Part shown: piece after piece, positions 8,494 to 63,835 of the stretch | How the letters are laid out: each line of letters starts with the position of its first letter | Numbering within the stretch: the stretch's first letter is position 1 | Source: a virus | Reading direction: 5' to 3' (one strand) | UHGV virus genome: UHGV-1366123 | DNA length: 64,000 nucleotides | Notes under the pieces: model-generated | What the model was told of the DNA's origin: nothing | Seen by the model: only the letters and a program-made list of their open reading frames with translations | The model's database searches: none | Made by a program: the position numbers and the translations under genes

Positions 8494-11400
8494 ATGGCAA
8501 CTCAATCAATAAAGAAAGTATCTGTAGACAACTCTCTTGAGGAATCAAGAAAGATAATAAACGAGAATTTTGGTGTAGTAGATCTTATGCTTCAGAAGAT
8601 AAACCAATACACTGGTTTATTTCTTGAAAATCTGAAACTGCCACAAGATCCACTCGGAAACGTAAAGTACGTTTTGAGATATGACGTTCAAAACGGAAGA
8701 TACGTCGTTGAGCCAGATTCTGTCGTCGGATCTACTGGTATTCTTGACATTGTTCAACAATGGTCTGGTGAACAAGGCAAGAATGTGACGTTTATGATAC
8801 TCAACAACATCTCGGAATATGAAGACCTTGATGTTGAAGTTCGTCGTACATCGATCATCTACGTTAAGGAAACTCGAGATGTCATAATCTGTGATAGAAA
8901 CCTTACAAACTTCACGAAGGAAGGGATCATCCAAGACATACAGAACTTCTTTACAGAGAAAAATAACGAGTTCGCAAAGTCGATAAAGGACTTTGAAGGA
9001 AAGCTCAAATCTTACAAGATGGGGATTCTCAGAACATTCTCCACCCTTGAAGATATGCGGTCGACCACGAACCCTGTAAGTGACAAGGGAGAACCACTCG
9101 AAGATGGGAACCTTGTCGCTATCTACAACAAGGCGAACTCTGGGTACGAACATAACGGCAAACTTTTCTCCTATAACCCAACAGCGACTGATGCTGATGA
9201 CCGATGGATCGAGGTCGGGAAGCTTTCACAGACGCTTGGGAATAGATTCACCGATGAGGAAAAACTTAAGGTTTCTATCATCAAGAATGATGGTGAACCC
9301 GATATGTTCCTTAGTGCAAACGGTTCTTATAGAAGAATCATCGTTCCGACAGCACCTATTCAAAAGATCGTTGTGAATGGTAACGAACTTACACCTTCTG
9401 AAGATGGTACTGTAAGAATTGACGCAGGTAAAGGTAGCGTCAAATCGGTACAGATCGGTACAGATCCCGAAATCCTGCCAAATGAGGATGGTGTGGTGAA
9501 AATCCCAGTCGATGTTGAACTTGACGAGAATTCACAATCTCCAATTTCCAATGCTATAGTTGCACAAGAAATCGGGAAGCTGAAGAGACATTCGATATCC
9601 TCACTCGATGCAGAACTCTCTGAAGATGGTCAATCCGTTGTTCTTTCTCTCTACGACGAGGTTCGTGGTGAGAAGTTTGGATCTGTGACTATCCCTGCAG
9701 GAGGTGGAGGTGGCGGTGGTGGCCAGATACAGAAGTCAAAGCTTATCCTTCAATCCGAACTCTCAAAGAAGCACATCCGTCTTGGTGATACTTCTGCATT
9801 CTCTTATACCTACGACTACAAGAATGCAGATGGTGAATCGACGGGTATACGTGCAAAGATTGAAGTCACGATTAAAAATGGTGCACTTACTCTGTTCTCA
9901 AAGACTTATGAAGATGTCTCCGCAGGGACTTATGGCGTGGACATTAACGATTATCTCCGAGAAGGTACGATAGACATTTACGTCAAGTGTACAATCCGAG
10001 ACGAAGAAGGAGAGACGAAGACGAAACAAACGTATCAATCTCTGAGAGTTTACGACATTCGTCTTGAGACTTCGTACAAGCTCTCGGCAAATGGACAAGG
10101 ATACGAATCCGCAGACACGATAATCATCCCTTTCCGTGTAACTGGTGCAGGTGATAAAAATGTGAAACTTCTCATGGATGGGACACAGCTTCAGTCACAA
10201 TCAGTCACAAAGAGTGGTGTCACAAATGGGTCATTCTCAATTCCAGCTGGATCGATTGTAAACGGCATCCATACGATGACCTTGACCACTGATGTATCAG
10301 TCCCAGGTACGACGATCCATTCAAACTCGATAATCTTCCACCTCCGTAGAGGTGTTGATCTTTATAAGCCATTTGCACTGTTTATGTTTGATGACAAGGT
10401 CGGCAGAACTTATGACGCAGGCGAACAGATCAAGATGGTCGTTGCACAATTTGAGGAATTCTCGTTCAACTATTACGTTTATGATCCTTCAAAGGCAAAG
10501 GCGAACATACGTCTCACGGTTGGAAATCAAGAATCATCGATCGTTGTTGATCGCATAGATCAAACGTACACGAACAGATTCATTGACCGCTCTCCAAAGA
10601 CGATCTCTATCAAAACATCCTCTGACACGTTCTCCCTCCCAGTTGTCATTGAAAGATCTTCAATGGACATTGACAAGGTTGTCGACAGTATGTCCTTGGA
10701 ACTTATGTCGGGAGGTCGCTCAAATACTGAATCGAACCCTGCAGTCTGGACTTATAAGGGAATCTCGACTGAATTCCATAACGTCAACTTCTCATCATCG
10801 GGTTGGAAGAACGGTTCACTTTCTCTTGTCAATGGTGCAAGCATAGAAATAAACCACAAGCCATTCGAAACTGACCCCACGATCACTGGCAAGACCTTCG
10901 AATTCGAATTCTCTACCAACACGATCTCTGATAAAACGTCGCCCATTATCCATTCTCTTGACAATGGCGTTGGGATTTCGATCACGCCAATCTCCGCCAG
11001 AATCCAAACATCAAGCGGTGTTTATGTCGAAACGAAGTTCTCCACTGGTAGATTCTACAAGATCACTTTCGTACTTTCGAAGAAGACAGAAACGAGAATC
11101 CTTGAAATCTACGTCGATGGTGTACGTTGTGGTGCAGTTCAGTACCCTTCCACCGATTCAATCCTCCATCAATCACCCAAGAGCATTGTTGTTGATTCAT
11201 CATCTTCGAACATTGATCTTCGAACTGTCAGAATCTATGATCGTGCTCTTCAAGATGATGAAATCCTCATGAACTACATCATCGACAGACCAAACCCCAG
11301 TGATATTGTTAGACTTTACAGAGACAACGACGTTCTTGACGATTCTGGTGCAGTCTCTATGCAGAAACTTCTCGCAAAGGGAAAATCTGTGATGAAGATG

Positions 11401-14400
11401 AAGGCAGATATCGCTCTTGTAGACAAGACCAATAACAAGAAGTTCGAAGTACCTCTTGATGTGGACTTCTTCTCAAAGTTCGGGAAAGAGTTCTCATTTG
11501 AACTCAGACATGGGCGTGTGAGAATACAGGGTACGTCATCGACGACTTATCCACGTAAAAACTATCGTCTCTACTTTGATGTCAAGAAGAAGGATGCGGA
11601 AAATACTCTTACTGTGGGTGGTGTTCTCAAGGAAAAGCGAAAGTACGCTTTCAAGCCGAATTCTCCAGAGGTTGGTCTGTTCACAATGAAAGCCGACTTT
11701 GCGGAATCATCATCTACTCACAACTCTGGTGTTGCAATTATCGTCAATGATGTCTTCAAGCAGTGTGGATTCCTCGTTCCACCTCAGAAGCAGGATATCA
11801 ATGTTCGAATAGGTGTTGATGGTCAGCCTTGTGATATGTTCGTGGATAATCTCGACGGACAAGTGAAGTACATCGGCAAGTATAACTTCAACAACGACAA
11901 GGCAAAATCGGATCACGTCTATGGATTCACGGGTGATGCTTGTACATGTTTGGAATTCCTCAACAACTCGAACGCTGTGGGGCTGTTCCAAACGGATGAT
12001 ATGAACACCCACTTCAAGAATGGTCTCGAGTTCCGATATCCCGAAGATATGACTTGGGAACAGGCAGGTGATAGACAGAGACACGTTCGTCGTTTGTGGA
12101 GCTGGATCAAGTCTTGTGTAGGTCGCCCCGATAAGTTCAAGCGTGAAGTAAGAGACTACTTCGATATCAACTTCCTCTGTGGTTGGTATGTGATGACGGA
12201 ATACTTCATGATGGTCGACCAGAGAGTCAAGAACATGATGCTCGCCACGTGGGATGGAAACCTTTGGTATTTCATCCCTTACGATAACGACACTATCCTC
12301 GGTGTTCGTAATGATGGTAAGCTCATCTACGATTATGATATCGACCAAGACACATATGACGCATCGATTCAGAACTGGGCTTATGCAGGTCATGATTCCG
12401 AACTTTGGAAACTCGTAAGACAAGCACTTCAGAACGAACTTCAAGAAACAGCACAGAAGATCAGATCTGTGATGTCGAAAGAATATGTCTTGAACGTTCT
12501 GAATGAAGAGTTCATGAACAACTGGTCGAAGAGAATCTACAACAAGGACTCTGAACATAAGTACATAAAACCACTACTGGAGAACAATCTTGACTACCTT
12601 TATTCGTTGCAGGGAAACAGAGAATCTCATCGTCAGTACATCATCAATAACCGATTCGACCTTCTTGATGCGAAGTATCTCGCAGGTACTTACAGATCAG
12701 ATAACATAAGAATCTACTTCTCTCACAACTTCTCTCAAGATAACAAGGAGATTCACATAAAAGCATCAGAACAATACAACTTTGGTTATGGATTTACCAG
12801 CGGTGCTCCAAAACAAAGCGGTATTCTTGCAAATGACAAGAACGGTTACAAGGTTTCGTTGAGATTCTTTATGGATCTTATCGTCAATGACCCTCAGTTC
12901 ATATACGGAGCTTCACGAATGCAAGAGATCGACTTCCGTGAGGTTTCGAAATACATCCTCAACAATATCGACTTCTCAAGTTGTAAGACCTTGAAGAAGC
13001 TTGATCTTTCATGTGCCGATACGAATACGACACTTCAATCTCTCACGCTTACTGGATGTCAGAATCTTGAAGAACTCAACGTACAGGGCTTGCAATCTGG
13101 CGGATTCACGTCGCTTGATCTTTCTGGAAATATTCGTCTCCGCAAGTTTGATGGTCGTCGCACGAAACTTCAGAGTATCTCATTCGCATCGGGATCACTC
13201 ATTGAAGAGCTTTATCTTCCAAGAACGTTCACATTCCTGCAACTTCGTGGTCTCAGAAATCTCCGTTGGGAAAATATCCACTTCGAAGACAAATCAAAGA
13301 TCACGAAGCTGTGGATAGAAAACTGTGACAACATACGTTGGGAAGACATCATCCAAGAATTCCCAAATCTTCAGAACATCAGAATCTATGGTGTTTCCAA
13401 GAAGGGTCGTACGGACTTCCTCGAGAAATACAAGCTGATGGGAGGGATCACGATCGATGGGTCTTTGCGCAGAGAATCTGGATTTGTTGGTAAGTATGAA
13501 CTTGAGAACTTCCTCGAGGAATCAGAACTGGATAAATGGCAACGACAATATCCCGAACTTTCTATTCTGCAACCAGAATATTCTGTAATTGCAGTTACGG
13601 AATCGATCGTAGATTCTCGTGGTCTGAAACAGAACGTACTCGATCCGCAGAGACTTTCTAATCTTGACAATGAGACTGGTTATCTTTATAACAAGCCTTA
13701 TGTGATGAGTGGTCACGTAAAGAAGATCGTCGAGAATCGTAGAAAGTACAGAGGAAAGGAAGAGGAAAGAGGAAAGATGGTCGTGTTCCCACTTCACGAC
13801 AAACACTCTGGGAAATATGACACAAATGAAAATCCCGATCTCTGTGAAGTTGCAGATATCGACGTTGCAGAATCTGGGGGTATTTGGGTTCACGAACCAC
13901 AATCTTGGAGAAAGGGTGTTTATGACTACGAAACAGACACTGACTACTTCATCTGGTCATCAAATCTCGAAGAACCACGGAGACCAGAGGGCAAGAAGTT
14001 CGACTTCGTATGGTTTAGACAGAATGCTGTAAAACAGATCTACGTACAACCAAGAAATGGTTGTGTCGGTAAGAACATAAGTCAGTACCTTTACAAGTAC
14101 AGACGATCAATATCTAATAGCGATGAAGGTGCAGACTACATCGGTCATGTAAAGATTGATGTTGGTGGATTCAAGAGAGTGAAGTTCCCAATGATGCACA
14201 GAGGTTATCACAATGAGGATAATCCAGCAATAGGTCTAACAAGTCCTGGGTCTCGGAGACAACCTGGTGGTGAATACTACTACGAGAAAGCTTGGAATGT
14301 TGGTGCTTGTTTCACAGATGCAGATGGGAAGATCATAAAGTTCATACTTCTGAACAATTCGGATTTCTCTATTATGAACCCCGATTTCGGATGTGCAGTT

Positions 14401-15516
14401 CCTGCTGATGCAAAATACCTCTACACGTCGATACTCACTGACTTCTTGCCACACGAAGTTTATGAAGTATGGTTAACAAATAGCGATTCAGTTGCAGACT
14501 GGGAGCCAGACTGGACGAAACAAGAATCGATGTGGGTTGCACACAATCCTCTCGTGTACAGTACAAACGATAAGAGAAGACAATCGTACCCAGGCATAGT
14601 GAATGCCAAAGAGCATGACGGTCATATAGACACGAGATACAACAAAAACCAATGGGTGTTCAAACAGGGAACGTCGTTGTGCTATCATCACAACCCCAAC
14701 ACTGTGGCGAACTTCATGAGAAGGCATGCGTCGTACAGATCGATCGACAGAATAGAAGCTGGCTACTTCTGGCATCTTGTGATATCGGCATATGGAAGAT
14801 TTGACTATGCTAATATAACTGGTTGTTCTTCGTCGAATATGGACAGCGGTCGTGAGAAATTCTTCACAGATCCAAGAATTGGTGTAAACGATTCAAGATG
14901 TATCGGAACTGACGGTGTGTACAACAGATCAAGATTACAGTACGTGTACGACGACGAATATGGACAGAAACAGTTCAATCCATACAGCCAATCGCAGATC
15001 ATGTGCTATGGTTGGATGCAGTCTGTAGTGTTTATGACACAGGCGAGAAACAAGGATGGGGTCGATTATTCTGGTGGTAGCAATATGAACCACTTCAAAT
15101 ATTGGAACGATAACAGATATTCGCAGTGGTACGGTATTATCGCTGTTCAGAAATCAACGACATACTCACCAGTTGGATCAAAAGACGTTTATGTGATCGA
15201 TTGGGAATCTTCCAACAATGGTCGTAACGCTCCAGTGAGAACTGTGAATAGTGGTAAGAAGTTGTCTATTGTTCCAAGGTCATACACTGGTGCAACCGAT
15301 TTCAATGGTTGCTGTCTGTATTATCATCACAATAACGCTTATGACCGTTTCGGTAATGATGAATACAACTACGTGAAATGGAAAACGTTTGGTTGGGAGA
15401 CGTACGTTCCGATCTACCTTGGAAATGTCGTGATATCAAATAACTTAGAAGAGTTTAAATCACTGAAACATTACAAATTCCTATATGATGAACGATTCGT
15501 ACCAGATGATAACTAA
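8494..15516 (+). CDS. giant virion protein (2340 aa), probable tail fibre / host-recognition protein with leucine-rich repeats
   Basis: 7-kb uninterrupted ORF; Gly8 linker (GGGGGGGG ~9700); LRR-like segment LDLSCADTNTTLQSLTLTGCQNLEELNVQGL...LDLSGN (~13000-13400); aromatic/His/Asn-rich C-terminus. Confidence 0.6.
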   Translation: MATQSIKKVSVDNSLEESRKIINENFGVVDLMLQKINQYTGLFLENLKLPQDPLGNVKYVLRYDVQNGRYVVEPDSVVGSTGILDIVQQWSGEQGKNVTFMILNNISEYEDLDVEVRRTSIIYVKETRDVIICDRNLTNFTKEGIIQDIQNFFTEKNNEFAKSIKDFEGKLKSYKMGILRTFSTLEDMRSTTNPVSDKGEPLEDGNLVAIYNKANSGYEHNGKLFSYNPTATDADDRWIEVGKLSQTLGNRFTDEEKLKVSIIKNDGEPDMFLSANGSYRRIIVPTAPIQKIVVNGNELTPSEDGTVRIDAGKGSVKSVQIGTDPEILPNEDGVVKIPVDVELDENSQSPISNAIVAQEIGKLKRHSISSLDAELSEDGQSVVLSLYDEVRGEKFGSVTIPAGGGGGGGGQIQKSKLILQSELSKKHIRLGDTSAFSYTYDYKNADGESTGIRAKIEVTIKNGALTLFSKTYEDVSAGTYGVDINDYLREGTIDIYVKCTIRDEEGETKTKQTYQSLRVYDIRLETSYKLSANGQGYESADTIIIPFRVTGAGDKNVKLLMDGTQLQSQSVTKSGVTNGSFSIPAGSIVNGIHTMTLTTDVSVPGTTIHSNSIIFHLRRGVDLYKPFALFMFDDKVGRTYDAGEQIKMVVAQFEEFSFNYYVYDPSKAKANIRLTVGNQESSIVVDRIDQTYTNRFIDRSPKTISIKTSSDTFSLPVVIERSSMDIDKVVDSMSLELMSGGRSNTESNPAVWTYKGISTEFHNVNFSSSGWKNGSLSLVNGASIEINHKPFETDPTITGKTFEFEFSTNTISDKTSPIIHSLDNGVGISITPISARIQTSSGVYVETKFSTGRFYKITFVLSKKTETRILEIYVDGVRCGAVQYPSTDSILHQSPKSIVVDSSSSNIDLRTVRIYDRALQDDEILMNYIIDRPNPSDIVRLYRDNDVLDDSGAVSMQKLLAKGKSVMKMKADIALVDKTNNKKFEVPLDVDFFSKFGKEFSFELRHGRVRIQGTSSTTYPRKNYRLYFDVKKKDAENTLTVGGVLKEKRKYAFKPNSPEVGLFTMKADFAESSSTHNSGVAIIVNDVFKQCGFLVPPQKQDINVRIGVDGQPCDMFVDNLDGQVKYIGKYNFNNDKAKSDHVYGFTGDACTCLEFLNNSNAVGLFQTDDMNTHFKNGLEFRYPEDMTWEQAGDRQRHVRRLWSWIKSCVGRPDKFKREVRDYFDINFLCGWYVMTEYFMMVDQRVKNMMLATWDGNLWYFIPYDNDTILGVRNDGKLIYDYDIDQDTYDASIQNWAYAGHDSELWKLVRQALQNELQETAQKIRSVMSKEYVLNVLNEEFMNNWSKRIYNKDSEHKYIKPLLENNLDYLYSLQGNRESHRQYIINNRFDLLDAKYLAGTYRSDNIRIYFSHNFSQDNKEIHIKASEQYNFGYGFTSGAPKQSGILANDKNGYKVSLRFFMDLIVNDPQFIYGASRMQEIDFREVSKYILNNIDFSSCKTLKKLDLSCADTNTTLQSLTLTGCQNLEELNVQGLQSGGFTSLDLSGNIRLRKFDGRRTKLQSISFASGSLIEELYLPRTFTFLQLRGLRNLRWENIHFEDKSKITKLWIENCDNIRWEDIIQEFPNLQNIRIYGVSKKGRTDFLEKYKLMGGITIDGSLRRESGFVGKYELENFLEESELDKWQRQYPELSILQPEYSVIAVTESIVDSRGLKQNVLDPQRLSNLDNETGYLYNKPYVMSGHVKKIVENRRKYRGKEEERGKMVVFPLHDKHSGKYDTNENPDLCEVADIDVAESGGIWVHEPQSWRKGVYDYETDTDYFIWSSNLEEPRRPEGKKFDFVWFRQNAVKQIYVQPRNGCVGKNISQYLYKYRRSISNSDEGADYIGHVKIDVGGFKRVKFPMMHRGYHNEDNPAIGLTSPGSRRQPGGEYYYEKAWNVGACFTDADGKIIKFILLNNSDFSIMNPDFGCAVPADAKYLYTSILTDFLPHEVYEVWLTNSDSVADWEPDWTKQESMWVAHNPLVYSTNDKRRQSYPGIVNAKEHDGHIDTRYNKNQWVFKQGTSLCYHHNPNTVANFMRRHASYRSIDRIEAGYFWHLVISAYGRFDYANITGCSSSNMDSGREKFFTDPRIGVNDSRCIGTDGVYNRSRLQYVYDDEYGQKQFNPYSQSQIMCYGWMQSVVFMTQARNKDGVDYSGGSNMNHFKYWNDNRYSQWYGIIAVQKSTTYSPVGSKDVYVIDWESSNNGRNAPVRTVNSGKKLSIVPRSYTGATDFNGCCLYYHHNNAYDRFGNDEYNYVKWKTFGWETYVPIYLGNVVISNNLEEFKSLKHYKFLYDERFVPDDN

Positions 15517-20684: not shown

Positions 20685-21881
20685 ATGGAAGCAAATCTCA
20701 AGATTTTCGCATCTGTCATTGATTCAAAGACCAAGGAACAGATCGATTCAATCGTTTCCCGAGAGCCATATTCGTCAGAAAGAGTGAGAATAATGCCAGA
20801 TGTTCATGCAGGTCGAGGATGTGTTATTGGCTTCACATCAACAACAACTCAAGGGAAGGTCAATCCTCATCTTGTCGGAAATGACATAGGCTGTGGAATG
20901 ACAATAGTCAAGCTCGGGAAGATCGATATTGACTACAAGGATCTCAATGGTTTCGTAGATTTGATCGCAAAGAAGGGTGTGCAATCTAACACCCCATTTG
21001 GCGGATTCCTACACGATTTCATGAAGTTTTATGGGATACTGATGTCATCATTACGATGCAATGTAAGTCCAGATGAACTTCAGAAGATCTTCGGCACTTT
21101 CGGCACTCTTGGAGGTGGTAATCACTTCATAGAGATCGGGAAGTCAGAATCGGGCGATCTTTATCTTGTGATACATAGCGGATCTCGTCGTCTTGGTAAT
21201 CACGTCTACAAGTACTACGTGTCCAAGAACTTTGACTATACCAAGAAGTCGAAGTCAGAGAAGATCAAGGCGATGATTTCGGAAATGAAGAAGAATGGTC
21301 TTCACGCACAAATCGAGGAACGTGTAAAGGAAATGCGATCAAGTGAAGAATCCACTGACATTCTCCACGAATCGTTACTTTATGACTATCTCCACGATAT
21401 GGGCGTTGCAGTCGAATTTGCTATTCTCAGTCGCATGTATATGGCAATGTCAATTTGTGAACACCTCGGTCTGAAAATCGACAACACGAAGATTGAGCAT
21501 TGTGTTCATAACTACATCGACGATCACGGTATCATTCGAAAGGGTGCATGTTCCGCTTACAAAGATCAACGTGTTGTAATTCCTATCAACATGCGTGACG
21601 GCATCATAATTGGTCGTGGACTTGGAAATCCAGATTGGAACTACTCTGCACCACATGGAGCAGGTCGTGTGATGTCAAGGACAGAAGCAAAGAACAAGCT
21701 TACTCTTGATGAACTCCAGAAGTCAATGGAAGGTGTAAACACATGGTCACTTTCCGAAGATGTGATAGATGAATCACCTTCTGCTTATAAGAAACTTGAA
21801 GATATTCTTCCATGGCTCTCGGAAACAGTCAATGTGGAAGGCATCTTAAAGCCAGTTTATAACTACAAAATAGCTGAATAA
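20685..21881 (+). CDS. rtcB: RtcB-family RNA ligase (398 aa)
   Basis: MPDVHAGRG, GNDIGCGM, GGGNHFIE, HSGSRRLG, NYSAPHGAGR match the RtcB metal/GTP-binding signature. Confidence 0.85.
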   Translation: MEANLKIFASVIDSKTKEQIDSIVSREPYSSERVRIMPDVHAGRGCVIGFTSTTTQGKVNPHLVGNDIGCGMTIVKLGKIDIDYKDLNGFVDLIAKKGVQSNTPFGGFLHDFMKFYGILMSSLRCNVSPDELQKIFGTFGTLGGGNHFIEIGKSESGDLYLVIHSGSRRLGNHVYKYYVSKNFDYTKKSKSEKIKAMISEMKKNGLHAQIEERVKEMRSSEESTDILHESLLYDYLHDMGVAVEFAILSRMYMAMSICEHLGLKIDNTKIEHCVHNYIDDHGIIRKGACSAYKDQRVVIPINMRDGIIIGRGLGNPDWNYSAPHGAGRVMSRTEAKNKLTLDELQKSMEGVNTWSLSEDVIDESPSAYKKLEDILPWLSETVNVEGILKPVYNYKIAE

Positions 21882-42956: not shown

Positions 42957-44273
42957 TTGATTATAGGAATTGTGAATAGACATCATCCGACATCAACTTC
43001 ATCTACTCATCTACTCATCTACTCATCAACTGATCAATTAATCAGACAACTCTACAACGAATTCCAACAAATGATCCTTGAGATAGAACTTAACCACTCA
43101 TCCTTGAAGAAGGGACAGAATGTTACGGAAGAGGACATTCTTATGGAAATATCTCGACTTGAGAGAGAAGCAAGTTATCAGTCCACAATTAACAAAGTCT
43201 CGAAAGTTGCTCTCAATTCAATCTATGGTGTTCTTGGTTATCACTCATTTATCCTTTACGACAGAGAAATTGCAAGATCGGTTTCGGAGCAATCTTCTCA
43301 CGTGATCCGTTACACCATTCTCTTCTTCAATAGGTATTTCCAACAGAGATTCCCAAATCATAGGGAACTACACGCAAAGATGGGGATTACAAAGTGTGAT
43401 CCGATCGATTTCAATGCGGTGAACTATGCTGACACTGATTCCGTGTTTATCCGTTACAAGGACATCATGGACAAGACCGATTACAAGGGGACTCTCGAGG
43501 AATTCGTCTTTGATATCGGTTCGTATGATCTCAATGATTGTGTCAAAGATATGCTCGAAGGCTATATTCGAAAGTTCAACGGATTCCAACAGAAGATCGA
43601 TGGACAACGTTCAATGAAGCTTGCTTTTGAAATGATCTGTCATAATGTCTTGTGGACATCGAAGAAGAAGTACATCAAGAATATCTCTTGGGAAGAAGGT
43701 GTTTATTTCAAGCCACTTGAAAACGTAGAAGTTAAAGGTCTCGACATTAACAAGAGTTCAACGCCAAAGTTTGTTCGAGAACTTCTCCGTGAGACAGTCC
43801 ACTACATCTTGCAACATAGAGAACTCAACCTTCGAGATTTCATCGACCACGTCAAGATGCAAAAATCAAAGTTCGAAAGTGCAAACGTGGAAGACGTTGC
43901 AATCTCTCAGAGAGTTAATGGTTATGAGAAATATGTGATAACTGCAAAAGATGGTGTCTTCGAATACGTCAAAGGTGTAACAATTCAGATCAGAGCTTCG
44001 AGTGTTTATAACGCAGAACTTGCAAAATCGAAGTACAAGCACAAATATCAACAGATCAGATCGGGGATGAAGATTCAGTACTACTATTCAACAGATCCTC
44101 GTAGTGATGTTTTCGCATTTGTCAACGGTGATCCTTGCTATGAGTTCCTTTATCCAATCGATTATTCTAAGCAGTTCGAAATGCTTTATCTTTCACCACT
44201 TAACAAGATAATCACATCGATTGGTGTACAAGCACTGCCTGTTTCATTGATCGCTTTCGATCCACTTTGGTAA
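42957..44273 (+). CDS. family B DNA polymerase, C-terminal (palm/thumb) portion only; likely start ATG 43071
   Basis: Motif B KVALNSIYGVLG, motif C YADTDSVFI, KKKY motif; no exonuclease domain or motif A in-frame upstream; 42957 is a TTG ORF-opening and the first 38 codons are a low-complexity tandem 9-bp repeat. Confidence 0.75.
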   Translation: MIIGIVNRHHPTSTSSTHLLIYSSTDQLIRQLYNEFQQMILEIELNHSSLKKGQNVTEEDILMEISRLEREASYQSTINKVSKVALNSIYGVLGYHSFILYDREIARSVSEQSSHVIRYTILFFNRYFQQRFPNHRELHAKMGITKCDPIDFNAVNYADTDSVFIRYKDIMDKTDYKGTLEEFVFDIGSYDLNDCVKDMLEGYIRKFNGFQQKIDGQRSMKLAFEMICHNVLWTSKKKYIKNISWEEGVYFKPLENVEVKGLDINKSSTPKFVRELLRETVHYILQHRELNLRDFIDHVKMQKSKFESANVEDVAISQRVNGYEKYVITAKDGVFEYVKGVTIQIRASSVYNAELAKSKYKHKYQQIRSGMKIQYYYSTDPRSDVFAFVNGDPCYEFLYPIDYSKQFEMLYLSPLNKIITSIGVQALPVSLIAFDPLW

Positions 44274-49140: not shown

Positions 49141-50136
49141 ATGCAGAAAAACTCGGAACAATGCAGAACAATGCAGAAAAAATTCGGAGCAATGTGGAAA
49201 AAACTGAAGGTGGAATTCGTCGCATATGTCGGCAAGTCCTTGTGTGTCAACGATTATACGAATCCGTTCACAGATGAGAAGTACAGAGAATCACTGAGAA
49301 AGTTGATAAATGACACTCGTGAAGGTGCGATTATTCTTATGGACGGAGAGTACTTCGAAATGATGGAAAGATCAAACTTTAGAGTTCCGTCGATTGTTCT
49401 CTTTGATTTTCAACACAAAGACACCAAAGATACGAAGTTCATCTGTTCATACAGTCAACTTTGTGATTTCCTTCGTGGGAGAAACGAGAAGGTCTTCGTT
49501 ATAGGTGGATACGACACATGGGCATCGCTTGTTCAGTACGTCTCCAAAATCCACTTCCTCGTCACTGATGAGAAATGGAACGAGGAAATGACAAGACCAT
49601 TCTTGGATGATGTTCATAAAGTGTGTAAGATAACAAACTACTCAGAATTCCCTAACGGAATAATCCACCAAGAACGTGAATTTGCAGACAATGTTGTGAT
49701 TTGCAACAGTTATGTTTCTAAAGACAAAGGATGTGAACTTTACTGTTGGGATGTTCTTTCACATGTGAATTCTGAAGGTGAACCTGTAAACAGAATACTT
49801 TCGAATGGTGTATCGACAATCGTCGGAGGAGGTGATACGATTTCGATCGTTACAGATTTCAAGATGTACAGAATACCGCCCACAACTGATATCCGTGTTG
49901 TGGAAAATCCTCGTTTCCGTTCGCTTGGTGTTGTTATGCAGTCGTGTAAAATCTCTGGTGGCGACATTATCATTTCTTTTACCAACAACTCACCACACCG
50001 TGTTATGTTGGACTATAAGAAAGTGGTTGCTAATATTCACATAATCGGAGACTACAAACTCATAGGTTGTAATAACGATTTCTCAGAGAATATGGAAACC
50101 AGCAAATGGGGAACTAAACTGATCAAACACTCATAA
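49141..50136 (+). CDS. degenerate DHFR-like domain fused to dUTPase-like beta-barrel domain (paralog 1, 331 aa)
   Basis: GAIILMDGEYFE...VPSIVLF and KVFVIGGYDTWASL resemble DHFR; C-terminal VTDFKMYRIPPTT...SGGDIIISF..VMLDYKKVVANIHII aligns with paralogs. Confidence 0.55.
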   Translation: MQKNSEQCRTMQKKFGAMWKKLKVEFVAYVGKSLCVNDYTNPFTDEKYRESLRKLINDTREGAIILMDGEYFEMMERSNFRVPSIVLFDFQHKDTKDTKFICSYSQLCDFLRGRNEKVFVIGGYDTWASLVQYVSKIHFLVTDEKWNEEMTRPFLDDVHKVCKITNYSEFPNGIIHQEREFADNVVICNSYVSKDKGCELYCWDVLSHVNSEGEPVNRILSNGVSTIVGGGDTISIVTDFKMYRIPPTTDIRVVENPRFRSLGVVMQSCKISGGDIIISFTNNSPHRVMLDYKKVVANIHIIGDYKLIGCNNDFSENMETSKWGTKLIKHS

Positions 50137-50155
50137 GAACAATCACAAACAAAAG

Positions 50156-51214
50156 ATGAAGAAGAACAAGACCGAAATCGAAATGATCCTATTTGTCAAT
50201 GACAAAGGCAAGACAGTCAACGCCCAGAAGTTGTTATCTTCACCCTCCGAAAGTGATCTTCGAGACTATATCGGAAAGATTACAACTGGGAACATCATCG
50301 TCTTTGATGAGGACACGTGTTCTACACTTATCGCTCCATTACCAAACAGAATCTGTGTTGTAATTACCCAGAACAAGGACTTCAATCGTGAAGGGTTTGT
50401 TCGTGTAGAATCTATCCGAGATTTCATCGACATGCTCGGTACGAAGTTCGACAGATATCGTGATGTTTACGTAATGGTCGACAACATTCACATCGCAAGA
50501 AGCTTCATGGGTCATGTCGATAGAGTGAAGATGGTGGAAGTCAAAGGATCAAAGAACCACGACAGATACGAACTCTCTGATGTTCCTTACAAGACAATCA
50601 CTGATATTCGTCGATCTTCGAACGTTGTCGGTGAATACTCTCTCAATGATCTCGTAAAAATCATTGATTATGAGTTTAAAGACAACGTCTTCATGTGCAC
50701 AGCAAGTGTTGATGGCTTTGGATGTTGTGGTGTCTGTGCACGAGAACCAAGAATCCATGTCGACAGCTTTGGTGAAACTGTGAGAAGAAAGTCGGACTGT
50801 CGTGAATCCATAGTCCTTCACAAAGGTGATAGAGTTTTCATGAAGACTGATATCGAGATTTACAGAATTCCCAAGAACGTTTATGTCGATATCAAGACAA
50901 TCTTACATGGCTTTATCTGTAACGGAATCTCTGTGGAATCGTCGAGTATCGCTGACGGTGTCGTCTGTGTTGGACTGATAAACATGGGATCGAAGCCTGT
51001 CACCATTCACAAGGATCAAACAATTGCCATAATGGCGGTCAGAGGTGATCATGAGTTCTTGAAAGTAGAGCATAAAGACTTCCCACGTGAAAAAGTCGAT
51101 GGGTGGAATAACTTCGAACGTGAAGACGAAGATGAAAATCGTCGACCACTAAAGGATGAGTGTTGTGTGGGTAGTATAATGGAACGTTGTGAAGACAGCG
51201 ATTATGACTTTTAA
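50156..51214 (+). CDS. degenerate DHFR-like domain fused to dUTPase-like domain (paralog 2, 352 aa)
   Basis: GNIIVFDEDTCSTLIAPLPNRICVVITQN resembles DHFR; C-terminal KTDIEIYRIPKN...IADGVVCVGLINMGSKPVTIHKDQTIAIMAV resembles dUTPase motifs III-IV. Confidence 0.55.
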   Translation: MKKNKTEIEMILFVNDKGKTVNAQKLLSSPSESDLRDYIGKITTGNIIVFDEDTCSTLIAPLPNRICVVITQNKDFNREGFVRVESIRDFIDMLGTKFDRYRDVYVMVDNIHIARSFMGHVDRVKMVEVKGSKNHDRYELSDVPYKTITDIRRSSNVVGEYSLNDLVKIIDYEFKDNVFMCTASVDGFGCCGVCAREPRIHVDSFGETVRRKSDCRESIVLHKGDRVFMKTDIEIYRIPKNVYVDIKTILHGFICNGISVESSSIADGVVCVGLINMGSKPVTIHKDQTIAIMAVRGDHEFLKVEHKDFPREKVDGWNNFEREDEDENRRPLKDECCVGSIMERCEDSDYDF

Positions 51215-51227
51215 AGAATAATCGATT

Positions 51228-52097
51228 ATGCCAGTAAAGTTTATAGCTTGTACAGATAAGAACTTCGCTGTTGGAAACGATAGCAAACTTCTGTTCAGAA
51301 TTCGAGAAGATATGAAGCTGTTCCGTGAGCTGACGATGGGAAGCATTGTCGTCATGGGCAGGAAGACCTTCGAAGAGATCGGAAAGCCACTTGAAGGTAG
51401 AATAAACATTGTTCTATCAAGATCGGACATTTCTATTGGAGGTGTTCACGTTTTCCGATCGATGGAAGAATTGAAAGCTTTCTGCATGACATCTGAAAAT
51501 CGACAGAAAGATGTCTTTGTGATTGGTGGTGCAGAAATGTGGGAACTCTTTAGAAGATATGTTTCACAGATCCACCTCACGAAAGTCCCAGATGACTGTC
51601 CCGAATACGACACCGTCTTCCCTCATGATCTCTTGACGGCTTTCACACTCGTTCATAAGAATCAGATCGGCATCTATGAAAAGAACTATCAACCGATTGT
51701 CCATGAAGTCTATGACAGACAGAAGGATGTGACGGTTATGAACCGCAAGAATGATAAGCTCGTACCTTTGAGATTTGTCGATGTTCTTGAATATGTCGGT
51801 GATAAACCATCAACGATTCTTAAAGACGATTCAGTGAAGATACTTGCAAATGACAGAATCGCTGTAAAAACTGATCTTCGTGTTTATGAACTTCCTTTAG
51901 ACACGCTTGTCAGTGTGGATGTCGTTCCATCAGTTTTTATGGACAACGGACTGATGATTGCAGGTTGGGATATCTTTGATGATGACTTTATCGTTTACAT
52001 GACACTGATTGGAAAGAAGTCGATTTCACTGAAACGTGGTGATATCATAGCAGACGTTAATTTCTATTCTCGTCATCCTCTGATTTACGCCCCATAA
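51228..52097 (+). CDS. folA: dihydrofolate reductase fused to C-terminal dUTPase-like domain (paralog 3, 289 aa)
   Basis: IVVMGRKTFEEIGKPLEGRINIVLSR and DVFVIGGAEMWELF...IHLTKVPDDCPEYDTVFP are canonical DHFR; C-terminal KTDLRVYELPLDT...GWDIFDDDFIVYMTLIGKKSISLKRGDIIADV. Confidence 0.85.
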   Translation: MPVKFIACTDKNFAVGNDSKLLFRIREDMKLFRELTMGSIVVMGRKTFEEIGKPLEGRINIVLSRSDISIGGVHVFRSMEELKAFCMTSENRQKDVFVIGGAEMWELFRRYVSQIHLTKVPDDCPEYDTVFPHDLLTAFTLVHKNQIGIYEKNYQPIVHEVYDRQKDVTVMNRKNDKLVPLRFVDVLEYVGDKPSTILKDDSVKILANDRIAVKTDLRVYELPLDTLVSVDVVPSVFMDNGLMIAGWDIFDDDFIVYMTLIGKKSISLKRGDIIADVNFYSRHPLIYAP

Positions 52098-52573: not shown

Positions 52574-53302
52574 ATGGACATTATCAAAAACCTCGGTTAT
52601 AACCAACATGGGATACTGGACAACATCCAGAAGCTGTATCTCGACGGAAAGCCGATCGATTGTGACATCACTTATTCCAAAGGTGCTTTCTATGGAAAGT
52701 TCAAAGTGAAGGAAGCAGATGGAGAAACTCGTGAAATCACAATCGAACAACCTCGACTAAAGTTTGATGTTTTCCCACTTTCGGAAGATGTTCAGAAGAT
52801 AGAACCCTTAAAGCCACTTCCACTCGAAGATCAATCGATCGAATCAATGATGATCGACCTACCGTTTATCGTCAGACCAACAAAGCCAGACACGTCGGTG
52901 ACTGATGAAACTGGGTCGAAGATGTTCAACCGATTCCAAGGTTTTCACACTCCAGACGACATGTATGAAACGTACTGGTTCTGGATCAACGAAGCTTATC
53001 GTGTGCTGAAGGTCGGTGGTACGCTTCTCTTCAAGACACAGAACACGATTTATGGCGGTATCAACCACAATACTGAGTTTTTCTCGTTCATGTGTGCCGA
53101 GAGAGCAGGGTTTGTCACCGAAGACACCTTCGTTCTTGGTGCAAAGTCGAGAATGATCTCACCATTTATGACCAAGCAGTTGCACGCTCGAAAGTTCACA
53201 TCGACTTTCTTCATCTTCAAGAAGCACAAATCCACAAAACATAAGAAGTTCAACTATTGGTCATTAATCCCAAAGCTTGAAGAATCTCATCATCATCAAT
53301 AA
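52574..53302 (+). CDS. possible truncated amino-methyltransferase-like protein (242 aa)
   Basis: IDLPFIV then YWFWINEAYRVLKVGGTLLFKTQ resembles the DPPY...RVLKpgG region of N6/N4 MTases; no AdoMet FxGxG motif seen. Confidence 0.3.
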   Translation: MDIIKNLGYNQHGILDNIQKLYLDGKPIDCDITYSKGAFYGKFKVKEADGETREITIEQPRLKFDVFPLSEDVQKIEPLKPLPLEDQSIESMMIDLPFIVRPTKPDTSVTDETGSKMFNRFQGFHTPDDMYETYWFWINEAYRVLKVGGTLLFKTQNTIYGGINHNTEFFSFMCAERAGFVTEDTFVLGAKSRMISPFMTKQLHARKFTSTFFIFKKHKSTKHKKFNYWSLIPKLEESHHHQ

Positions 53303-57317: not shown

Positions 57318-57581
57318 ATGACTAAGAAAGAATTCATCACAGCTCTCGCAGAGCAGACTGGTGCAACTAAGACGCAGGTAGAAGCCATCATCGGTGCTTA
57401 TCACAAGACTATCATCGAAAGTCTTAAGAAGGATGAGCCAGTGACCTTCGTTGGCTTCGGTACGTACTCATCCAGAGTTCGCCCAGAGCGTGAAGCCTTC
57501 AAGCCTGGTACTAAGGAAAAGATGACAGTACCTGCAAAGAAGGTCGGTAAGTTCAAGATGTCAAAGTCTGTAGAACTTTAG
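57318..57581 (+). CDS. hup: HU/IHF-family DNA-binding protein (87 aa)
   Basis: MTKKEFITALAEQTGATKTQVEAII...VTFVGFGTYSSRVRPEREAFKPGTKEKMTVPAKKVGKFKMSK matches the HU fold signature. Confidence 0.85.
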   Translation: MTKKEFITALAEQTGATKTQVEAIIGAYHKTIIESLKKDEPVTFVGFGTYSSRVRPEREAFKPGTKEKMTVPAKKVGKFKMSKSVEL

Positions 57582-57774: not shown

Positions 57775-59205
57775 ATGAAAGCCAAGAAGCATCACGTGGG
57801 CATGTTTGACCACATGTTCCAAAAGGGAAAGATCACATTCTTGCTGGATGGTTACTCCGCAGGTTCATCTGGGAAGGGCAAATGTGAATCTCTGATCGTA
57901 AAGAACACGTCGTTTGGATCTAAAGACAGTGATAAGCGTCTTGCAGTCTGTACCACAAACTCTGCAAATGCGTCACATTGGGTTTATGATGACGGCAAGA
58001 AGATGATGTTCGAAGTCCTCCCTTCATCGGCTTACCTGTACGAAAAGCTCGAGTTCGTGGCTATCGGTCACGGTGCGTCGTTCTCCGTTGAACGTCTCTT
58101 CGAAGAAATCAAGATGAGCGGTCTTCCCCTCGATAAGCTCTTCATCCACCCCAAGGCAGGGATCATCACCAAGATCGACGAAGACTACGAAAAGGGTCTT
58201 TGTGATATCGACGGCAACTATTCGTCACAAGACCACGACGGCACAATTGCAGGTGGTTCAACTTGCTCTGGATCTGGTGCAGTTCGTGCAAAGAAGGTCG
58301 TTCGAAACAAGACGGTGACTTATGCTTACCAAGTCCCAGAACTCAAGCAGTTCATCTGTGATGTCGAAAAGCGTCTTATGACGTTTATGATCAATGGAGG
58401 ATCAGTCCTTCTGCAGATTGGTCAAGGTTTCCCACTTTCGTATGGTCTCGGCTATAACAAGCAGAACTCAACAAGTCGAAATGTGACAATCAGTGCAGCT
58501 TTGGATGATATGAATCTTCCTCCATTCTTCGCAGGTGACGTTATCTTGAATGGTAGAACTTATCCGATCAAGATCAACAACAAGAAGTATCGCCTTATTG
58601 GTGGGAAGCCAGTTGTCCGACTTCACAAGAACTCGGAATCGACGCTCAAGTACTACGCTCATAAGCATCTGTTCGACTTCATCGAAGGAGATGATCACGT
58701 TTCTATCGTCACACGTAAGGAATTCATCAACTTCTACGAAATGCGTGAGTTCCCCTACCTTGAATACGAAGTCATCGAATCGTTCAGTGGTACTGGTTAT
58801 TCTCCAATCTGGAACGAAGAAAGTCACCAGCGAGAAATCACGTGGGAAGATGTCGAAAAGAACTATGGGAAGACAATCCCAGATGATGTAAAATGCACGT
58901 CACTTACCAAGCTCCCCCGAAGAGTCTTTGAGTTCGATAAGAGCCTTCTGCACGACGGTATTCTCTACAATCTCTCTCCAAATGGCAAAACTCATATTGT
59001 CATCAACTTCGTCAACTGGGTAGATGGTGAAATGGACGGAGAACGTGAGAAGATCACCGAAAAGGTCGAAGATTGGCTCTCCAAGAACATGTTCGGCGAA
59101 ATCGACACTATCAACAAGCTCGTAGGTGGTAATGATGAAAAGGTCGTGCTTTCTGTACTCGGGACTGGTCGTGAATCCGACGACTTTGTCGCTGTAGAAC
59201 AGTAA
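57775..59205 (+). CDS. adenylosuccinate synthetase-family enzyme, divergent (PurA/PurZ-like, 476 aa)
   Basis: P-loop GSSGKGK aligns with [30 protein letters not shown] aligns with [32 protein letters not shown] with [18 protein letters not shown] with GAQGTLLDIDHG. Confidence 0.55.
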   Translation: [476 protein letters not shown]

Positions 59206-63364: not shown

Positions 63365-63835
63365 TTGATAACAATAAAAATGGATGAAAAAGTAAAAGAA
63401 TACGAGCAATTTGTCGTTTCTTGCTTCAACGAGAATCCTACAAATAACAAGGTTCTCGACTTCATTCACATGACAATGGCACTTATGTCAGAATCTGGTG
63501 AATTCGCTGATATAGTCAAGAAGGCGGTGTTCCATTCTAAGGAGATCTCGAAGGTTGATCTCGTAGACGAACTCGGTGATGTTCTGTTCTACTTCATGAA
63601 CATTTGTCATTTCCTTGGTGTCACGATTGATGATGTCATGGAAGCAAATCTCATAAAAATCCGTGAAAGATACCCCGAAGGTCGTGGCAAGAACTACAAC
63701 TTCGGTACACGTAATAAGGCAGAAGAAAAGAAGAGAATAGAACAATTCTTGATGAAGATAAAGCAGGATGTTTCAATCGATATCAACATCAGCCAAATCA
63801 ATCCTCATCATCAGTCTCAACACATAGGAAAGTAA
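63365..63835 (+). CDS. MazG-like nucleoside triphosphate pyrophosphohydrolase (156 aa)
   Basis: ALMSESGEFADIVKK (EExGE) and ELGDVLFYFMNICHFLGVTIDDVMEANLIKIRERY match the all-alpha MazG signature. Confidence 0.8.
   Translation: MITIKMDEKVKEYEQFVVSCFNENPTNNKVLDFIHMTMALMSESGEFADIVKKAVFHSKEISKVDLVDELGDVLFYFMNICHFLGVTIDDVMEANLIKIRERYPEGRGKNYNFGTRNKAEEKKRIEQFLMKIKQDVSIDINISQINPHHQSQHIGK

Follow-up and report, generated by a model that had tools for sequence, protein, structure and literature searches.

Synthesis of 2-aminoadenine (Z) in phages starts with PurZ, a dGMP-specific succino-2-aminodeoxyadenylate synthetase for which the short-type adenylosuccinate synthetase (PurA) of archaea is the proposed ancestor type. 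The PurB and guanosine monophosphate (GMP) kinase steps of dZTP synthesis are attributed in the literature to host enzymes. The known Z-genome phages are small siphoviruses, podoviruses or actinophages that use host PurB and host GMP kinase, and have a tight purZ–datZ–mazZ cluster. PurZ0 phages carry the partners DutZ and DmtZ, where DmtZ is a member of the nucleoside 2-deoxyribosyltransferase (NDT) family that clears dAMP. At the position of Asp13 of PurA, 99% of the PurA clade has Asp and, of 147 sequences of the phage PurZ group, 100% have Ser (Poubanne et al., PMC12884076). The counterpart in S-2L PurZ is the conserved S23 (Czernecki et al.). In phiVC8 PurZ S14, F12 and T262 are the residues that accommodate the 2-amino group, and the S14D substitution abolishes substrate selectivity (metaGPA preprint). 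The subject here is a 476-amino-acid (aa) synthetase of this superfamily, encoded in a stretch of 64,000 nucleotides (the window) of the virus genome UHGV-1366123.

We propose that the protein is a divergent long-form PurZ-type enzyme that acts on dGMP and feeds a self-contained dZTP pathway, with a probability of roughly 60%. This rests on what was observed, namely the homology, the fold, the states of the motifs, the structure of the clade and the gene complement; all substrates and products, and Z as a base of the virion DNA, are inferred from it.

The P-loop reads G30-S-S-G-K-G-K36, encoded in frame by ggt tca tct ggg aag ggc aaa. As the initial annotation had stated, this stands in place of the GDEGKGK of PurA, and alignment with the E. 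coli enzyme confirms that S31 lies opposite Asp13 and S32 opposite Glu14. In 115 homologs of the synthetase, 35–97% identical, for which all residue percentages are given here (with numbering that agrees with the PurZ papers), G30, S31 and K34 never vary and S32 is conserved in 96%, so the Ser-Ser P-loop is neither chance nor a sequencing oddity. The same annotation regarded it as a non-canonical surprise, with the proviso that PurZ homologs might share the substitution trivially. They do. Three of three reference PurZ proteins have a GSTGKG P-loop, and because these and the published group of 147 sequences have Ser at this position, the Ser-type P-loop is a known signature of PurZ and nothing new in itself. 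The suggestion that the change from Asp to Ser signals a changed substrate, with dGMP as one option, gains from the published role of this Ser in PurZ, although not as an anomaly.

Downstream determinants were said to be retained. N65, H68, G161-S-T163 and Q217-G218 are indeed present, but the Gly of the NAGH motif is replaced by Ser (NASH). A66 and H68 are 100% conserved and S67 77%. The Asn of this motif is kept in the window protein, but is found in only 53% of the family, with Gln in the remainder. Loss of activity, also raised, is not supported: K34, H68, T163, R177, Q217, T233, R382 and R383 (K16, H41, T129, R143, Q224, T239, R305 and R306 of E. coli PurA) are each 100% conserved. With all catalytic residues conserved, a pseudoenzyme was rejected.

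Several diagnostic residues are of PurZ type. The aspartate loop has the PurZ-specific Thr (phiVC8 T262 and S-2L T273) as T375, 98% conserved, and T378, R382 and R383 are each 100%. The region aligned to the TKLD donor site of PurA (Asp333) reads I-N-F-V-N-W. Here N411 (97%), F412 (99%) and N414 (97%) correspond to N294, F295 and N297 of phiVC8 PurZ, as expected of a PurZ-type donor site. I267 occupies the position of V236, the 2′-gatekeeper of PurZ, and is 98% conserved. Alignments with PurZ stop at residues 268–270 of the query and restart at 352, giving an insertion of ∼80 aa that folds confidently in the AlphaFold2 (AF2) model (block predicted local distance difference test (pLDDT) 92–97). 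Further departures from PurZ are an insertion of ∼14 aa and a C-terminal extension.

The synthetase narrowly passes the adenylosuccinate synthetase model PF00709 (32.8 bits, cut-off 27) and matches phrog_1211 (‘2-aminooxy adenylosuccinate synthetase’) with E = 3.7e-23. In a single-sequence search of the PDB, phiVC8 PurZ is the best match (E = 2e-15), followed by S-2L PurZ. A family profile built from 94 members scores 180 bits against phiVC8 PurZ, 139 against S-2L PurZ, 115 against Pyrococcus PurA, 60 against PurZ0 (7VF6) and ∼46 against E. coli PurA; the two PurZ structures are the only ones to which its C-terminal block aligns significantly. The AF2 model of the synthetase has a pLDDT of 95 and a predicted template-modelling (TM) score of 0.92. 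In Foldseek it superimposes upon phiVC8 PurZ (6FM1) with TM = 0.85 and a root-mean-square deviation of 3.0 Å, upon Pyrococcus PurA with TM = 0.86 and upon PurZ0 (7VF6) with TM = 0.78. Canonical PurA (EC 6.3.4.4) was rejected as an assignment; the protein lacks Asp13 and the TKLD guanine-donor motif, and scores 44.1 bits against the NCBIfam model TIGR00184 purA, where the cut-off is 395.55.

A large protein collection contains 217 homologs, mostly of 400–480 aa, many of which are on contigs of 100–280 kb. No close DNA relative was found among deposited phages by megablast. In a tblastn search of a phage database, Flavobacterium phage MaF61 is the only cultured-phage full-length relative among the matches listed (39.5% identity); in the 30 records listed of 56, the other matches are PurZ-type phages or annotated as adenylosuccinate synthetase or PurZ. 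Classical PurZ proteins align there over the N-terminal half only, with 26–30% identity. Some homologs are longer than the rest. P0073 (790 aa) and L067:3509-5890 are split by an intein or homing endonuclease (PF14890 Intein_splicing, PF03161 LAGLIDADG), and P0025, P0068, P0098, P0104 and P0119 are also 550–670 aa in length.

The motifs at 79 IMG/VR loci fall into a graded series. Classical PurZ, of about 340–360 aa, has (F/Y)GSTGKGL, NAGH and TTVTKLPRR. An intermediate group of about 393 aa, on contigs of 240–436 kb, has WGSSGKGK and NAGH. The long form, with NA(S/A)H, two insertions and 400–480 aa, is found in phage genomes of 100–340 kb. Three intermediates (L070, L071 and L073) have TTVTKRIRR and LNFxQY, and keep the PurA-like Trp before Gly-Ser. 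In a rough neighbour-joining tree (334 columns, 200 bootstraps), built without PurZ0 and the archaeal Ser/Gly sequences, 200/200 bootstraps separate all Ser-type sequences from the PurA of E. coli and Pyrococcus. The intermediate group branches between classical PurZ and the long form, and the long form plus intermediates is the sister of classical PurZ in 188/200. Judged from sequence, the synthetase is not a classical PurZ, although its nearest characterised relatives are PurZ. No paper describing the long-form clade was found in the literature. Since the P-loop is known, the interest lies in the context: what is new is an uncharacterised PurZ variant, found in large phages, whose architecture and partner genes differ from the classical ones.

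Of the described enzymes phiVC8 PurZ (PDB 6FM1, 6FKO and 6TNH) is the best sequence and profile match, and a close match in fold. It shares with the window protein the Ser at the Asp13 position, the TxxTK..RR loop, the N-F-x-N donor motif, an SGxxY.DQxExxWE block and a short-type core that lacks the long helical insertions of PurA. The two are nevertheless only ∼21–30% identical, mainly in the N-terminal half. At 343 aa against 476, the phiVC8 enzyme is shorter; it has GSTGKGL, Phe12 and NAGH where the window protein has GSSGKGK, Ala29 and NASH, and lacks the two insertions and the C-terminal extension. Moreover phiVC8 has PurZ beside DatZ and uses DpoZ; the window phage does neither. S-2L PurZ (PDB 7ODX), for which use of dGMP and dATP/ATP is established, shows the same hallmarks (S23, the T273–T276 loop, N305 and F306), but is a 359-aa protein with Tyr21 and with Gln308 instead of Asn, and is encoded in a compact datZ–mazZ–purZ triad. 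The long-form clade is not a member but the sister of the classical clade, to which S-2L PurZ belongs. The short-type PurA of Pyrococcus horikoshii (5K7X/2D7U) is an equally good fold match. The 115 bits it scores with the family profile fall in the N-terminal half, while the C-terminal half does not align (3 bits); its motifs differ too, being GDEGKG (which includes the catalytic Asp), GRRRR and a donor motif of guanine type. PurZ0 (Gordonia phage Archimedes, 7VF6) belongs to the Ser-type homologs of PurA in Z-genome phages and has the same fold, but its similarity to the family profile is weak compared to that of PurZ.

The phage comes from a human oral habitat and is T4-like, with a T4-type portal, RtcB, a 5′–3′ exonuclease and a family-B polymerase; from IMG/VR uncultivated viral genomes (UViGs) that are 96–98% identical its genome is ∼150 kb. 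The synthetase lies in a nucleotide-metabolism module (ThyA, three DHFR-like proteins, a DNA methyltransferase, a class II ribonucleotide reductase (RNR), HU, the synthetase, a PurB-like lyase and MazG), where ThyA, DHFR and RNR are in keeping with a phage making dNTP pools of its own. The PurB-like lyase scores 215–269 bits with NCBIfam PurB models, under their cut-offs, matches PDB 3BHG with E = 1e-52 and keeps the catalytic THGQ and GSSAMPHKVNP. The guanylate-kinase (GMK)-like protein matches guanylate kinases in the PDB with E of about 5e-15, and has the GMP-binding TTR..YHF..YGT core and the P-loop GKSAVGKN. The MazG-like protein has no detectable similarity to S-2L MazZ or PMBT28 MazZ-2, and gave no usable match in the PDB. 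Beyond the window, six further scans of viral contigs walked the genome, covering all but ∼11 kb of UViG 3300045988_111166. An HD-domain hydrolase of the same phage (L135:13068-13823) was found in this way ∼21 kb past the 3′ end of the window, in a replication module that reads PIF1/Dda-type helicase, DUF4494, HD and gp44-like clamp loader. It just passes the Pfam HD threshold and has the common core HD..E....D.P, weak YfbR-like similarity and a pairwise E = 2e-6 to a DatZ homolog.

Because the steps in the literature are those of host PurB, host GMP kinase and MazZ, the PurB-like, GMK-like and MazG-like proteins support a dZTP pathway. That the phage encodes both of the first two is unusual for such a pathway, since these are the steps attributed to the host. 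The five-gene set of MaF61 (PQ858689; host Flavobacterium sp. B330) equals that of the window phage: ORF141 (putative adenosuccinate synthetase; in the same long-form clade, its identity extending over 97% of the length), ORF149 (lyase), ORF95 (GMK; E = 2e-19 with the window protein), ORF62 (MazG) and ORF97 (HD; E = 2e-23). Its retention when the synthetases have so diverged counts in favour of the pathway. The MaF61 paper contains no occurrence of adenylosuccinate, adenosuccinate, aminoadenine, diaminopurine or restriction, and literature on two groups of large aquatic phages does not mention the synthetase or modified DNA.

If the synthetase acts as PurZ does, it would bind dGMP, ATP or dATP would phosphorylate O6, and L-aspartate would displace the phosphate to give N6-succino-2-amino-2′-deoxyadenylate. 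As in PurZ, Ser31 would make room for, and tolerate, the 2-amino group of guanine. The PurB-like lyase of the phage would release fumarate to generate dZMP, the GMK-like kinase would convert this to dZDP, and host NDP kinase would form dZTP, from which the family-B polymerase of the phage would place Z opposite T. A candidate supplier of dGMP from dGTP is the MazG-like enzyme, and the HD hydrolase, a distant relative of DatZ and YfbR, a candidate remover of dATP or dAMP.

Table 1. Positions of the synthetase, its motifs and the associated genes in the window.
Feature	Coordinates	Strand	Remarks
Long-form PurZ-like (PurA-superfamily) synthetase, 476 aa	57775–59205	+	Assigned from Pfam, PHROG, PDB and AF2
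P-loop, G30-S-S-G-K-G-K36	57862–57882	+	S31 replaces PurA Asp13, S32 replaces Glu14
N65-A-S-H68, counterpart of PurA/PurZ NAGH	57967–57978	+	Catalytic His kept, Gly40 position is Ser
Insertion of ∼80 aa, family-specific, roughly aa 271–351	58585–58827	+	Follows the PI(K/R)I strand bearing I267
Aspartate loop, T375-S-L-T-K-L-P-R-R383	58897–58923	+	TTVTKLPRR in PurZ; GATTGRRRR in PurA
N411-F-V-N414, PurZ-type adenine-nucleotide donor motif	59005–59016	+	Replaces guanine-binding TKLD of PurA
GMK-like protein, 177 aa	40452–40985	−	Pfam Guanylate_kin, E = 6e-18
HU-type DNA-binding protein	57318–57581	+	Directly upstream of synthetase; Pfam Bac_DNA_binding, E = 2e-25
PurB (adenylosuccinate-lyase)-like protein, 423 aa	60199–61470	+	Pfam Lyase_1 and ASL_C
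MazG-family nucleotide pyrophosphohydrolase	63365–63835	+	Pfam MazG, E = 2.9e-10; ExxE and ExxD present

A number of observations weigh against a Z-forming function. The protein scores 85.7 bits with the NCBIfam PurZ model NF038379 (amino_Aden_PurZ), where the cut-off is 300, over the N-terminal 240 residues only, and this is almost level with its score against the archaeal-type PurA model (81.9 bits, cut-off 368). In the tree classical PurZ is monophyletic in 200/200 bootstraps with the window protein outside, placed in a long-form core clade in 184/200. Around the substrate, Ala29 (Ala in 78% of the family, Phe in 10%) is found where PurZ has Phe12 or Tyr21 and PurA has Trp, and the aromatic residue of phiVC8 (F12) and S-2L (Y21) is reported as an aid in accommodating the 2-amino group. 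Ser67 lies at the Gly40 position, which is Gly in PurZ and PurA alike, and the family has no conserved Pro to stack against the ATP adenine.

The genomic context provides further contrary points. Neither DatZ nor MazZ-1/2 lies within 10 kb at any of ∼60 long-form loci; over the same distance classical PurZ loci have MazZ and/or MazZ-2 in 13/15 cases and DatZ in 11/15. Homologs of DatZ, MazZ-1 and MazZ-2 were not found by phmmer in the window or at the homolog loci, and a manual scan of its unannotated ORFs for HD motifs revealed nothing convincing. In neither the window nor the walked genome was an NDT-like or DatZ/MazZ-type partner found, with no search aimed at the dUTPase-type DutZ. The MazG and HD proteins are too divergent for their specificity to be assigned, and MazG, HD hydrolases and GMK-like kinases are frequent in large phages regardless of DNA chemistry. 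No DpoZ-type PolA was seen, the polymerase being of family B. The GC content is 41%, and contigs with dZ are reported to be richer in GC.

Some of these features could reflect PurA/PurZ chemistry on another 6-oxopurine nucleotide (GMP, dIMP or (d)XMP), to give a product other than dZTP, a ribonucleotide, or a minor or partial modification of the DNA. The differences from PurZ close to the substrate (Ala for Phe/Tyr/Trp before Gly-Ser, Ser for Gly40, and, in the window protein, Lys266 for Arg), the two clade-specific insertions adjoining the active-site strand, the score below the cut-off of the PurZ model and the lack of a nearby DatZ/MazZ cluster all speak for this. Yet S31, T375 and I267, whose published roles are in recognition of the 2-amino group and the deoxyribose, are 98–100% conserved, a guanine-like and an adenylosuccinate-like intermediate would suit the GMK-like and PurB-like partners, and there is no positive evidence for any specific alternative substrate. 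This explanation is therefore unlikely.

PurA and PurB together form the canonical branch from IMP to AMP. The synthetase and the lyase might thus be an ordinary auxiliary pair that converts IMP (dIMP) to AMP (dAMP) and boosts the supply of adenine nucleotides in infection, with no modified base. The general PF00709 threshold is passed, a classical Z-cluster is absent beside the gene, and the genome is AT-rich and carries a DNA methyltransferase, as such a role would allow. However, the residue that is Asp13 in 99% of the true PurA clade (PMC12884076) is Ser in 100% of the long-form family, the GTP-binding TKLD is replaced by the PurZ-type NFxN, and both the family profile (180 bits with PurZ, ∼46 with E. 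coli PurA) and the purA model (44 bits against a cut-off of 395) argue against PurA, making an auxiliary pair quite improbable. A catalytically dead PurA-fold protein with a structural or regulatory role would explain the missing catalytic-base Asp, but is extremely improbable given that active PurZ enzymes also lack this Asp, that the other catalytic and ligand-binding residues are 97–100% conserved in the homologs and that the AF2 model is compact and confident.

Returning to the PurZ-type reading, a broader proposal can be put forward tentatively. A widespread T4-like lineage of ∼100–340 kb, including the oral phages and MaF61, might make 2-aminoadenine DNA by a self-contained pathway in which every enzyme is divergent, using a long-form PurZ, its own PurB and GMP-kinase-like enzyme, MazG and HD proteins unrelated in sequence to MazZ and DatZ, and a family-B polymerase that is not DpoZ or PrimPol; or else the long-form enzyme, with its pocket opened at Ala29 and its inserted domain, might make a purine that is not Z. 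If the long-form clade does act on dGMP, Z-DNA would also occur in large T4-like phages whose hosts are human-associated and freshwater bacteria, its synthesis could become independent of the host, and a family-B polymerase could copy it. The cultured member MaF61 makes the question directly testable. On the strength of PurZ homology, dZ has been predicted as possible for more than 2000 viruses, a set that may include some long-form phages, and the answer would help to calibrate those predictions that rest on such homology alone.

The HU–synthetase adjacency (L009:9604-9888; L026-L038) is kept in a Human Microbiome Project phage clade in which the synthetase is 39% identical, and at several IMG/VR loci. 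A protein of ∼200 aa is encoded directly upstream of the synthetase in 13 of 36 long-form lineages (L033:8266-8901, alignment A2; also at L039, L043, L045, L049, L052, L053, L055, L059, L064, L065, L066 and L072). It begins with vYLAGPVE and has an invariant Glu in GTxEE..GKPV, and its matches to the nucleoside 2-deoxyribosyltransferase superfamily are below threshold (Pfam E = 1e-3; PDB 4JEN, 2A0K and 4JEM). The same profile matches a gene adjoining a different Ser-type PurZ-like lineage (L081/L082:11838-13055) with E = 9e-8. Because the NDT-family DmtZ clears dAMP in PurZ0 phages, the ∼200-aa protein may by analogy be a comparable partner. Neither the window nor MaF61 has it. For a second conserved small gene upstream, in 14 lineages (cluster A3), a DeoC-like guess was dropped, having no Pfam or PDB support. 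On a 262-kb contig of an NCBI metagenome-assembled genome that carries P0030 (L007:1206-2159 and L007:8386-9955), a gene of the adenosine/AMP-deaminase family is located ∼8 kb upstream of the long-form synthetase, and a histidine kinase and response regulator pair directly adjoins it. The deaminase could be another route for the removal of adenine nucleotides.

Several other features of the window phage were seen. The family-B polymerase is seemingly in two genes ∼25 kb apart (42957–44273 and, past the window end, L006:19611-21107), the second piece followed by Cpn10 and Cpn60 chaperonin genes and a gp32-like single-stranded-DNA-binding protein. PHROGs applied to ten unannotated neighbours yielded only the DNA methyltransferase and one family of unknown function. 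The methyltransferase (52574–53302), inside the nucleotide module, matches phrog_24333 (E = 3e-32) and, weakly, Pfam N6_N4_Mtase; if it is an N6-adenine enzyme, this would bear on whether the genome still contains A. The three DHFR-like genes are consecutive, downstream of ThyA (49141–52097; 331, 352 and 289 aa), and the first two proteins greatly exceed the length of a normal DHFR, with only weak matches to the DHFR model. A protein of 2340 aa (8494–15516) with CotH kinase-like, LamG/concanavalin-like and leucine-rich-repeat regions is probably a virion or host-interaction protein. The RtcB RNA ligase is encoded at 20685–21881.

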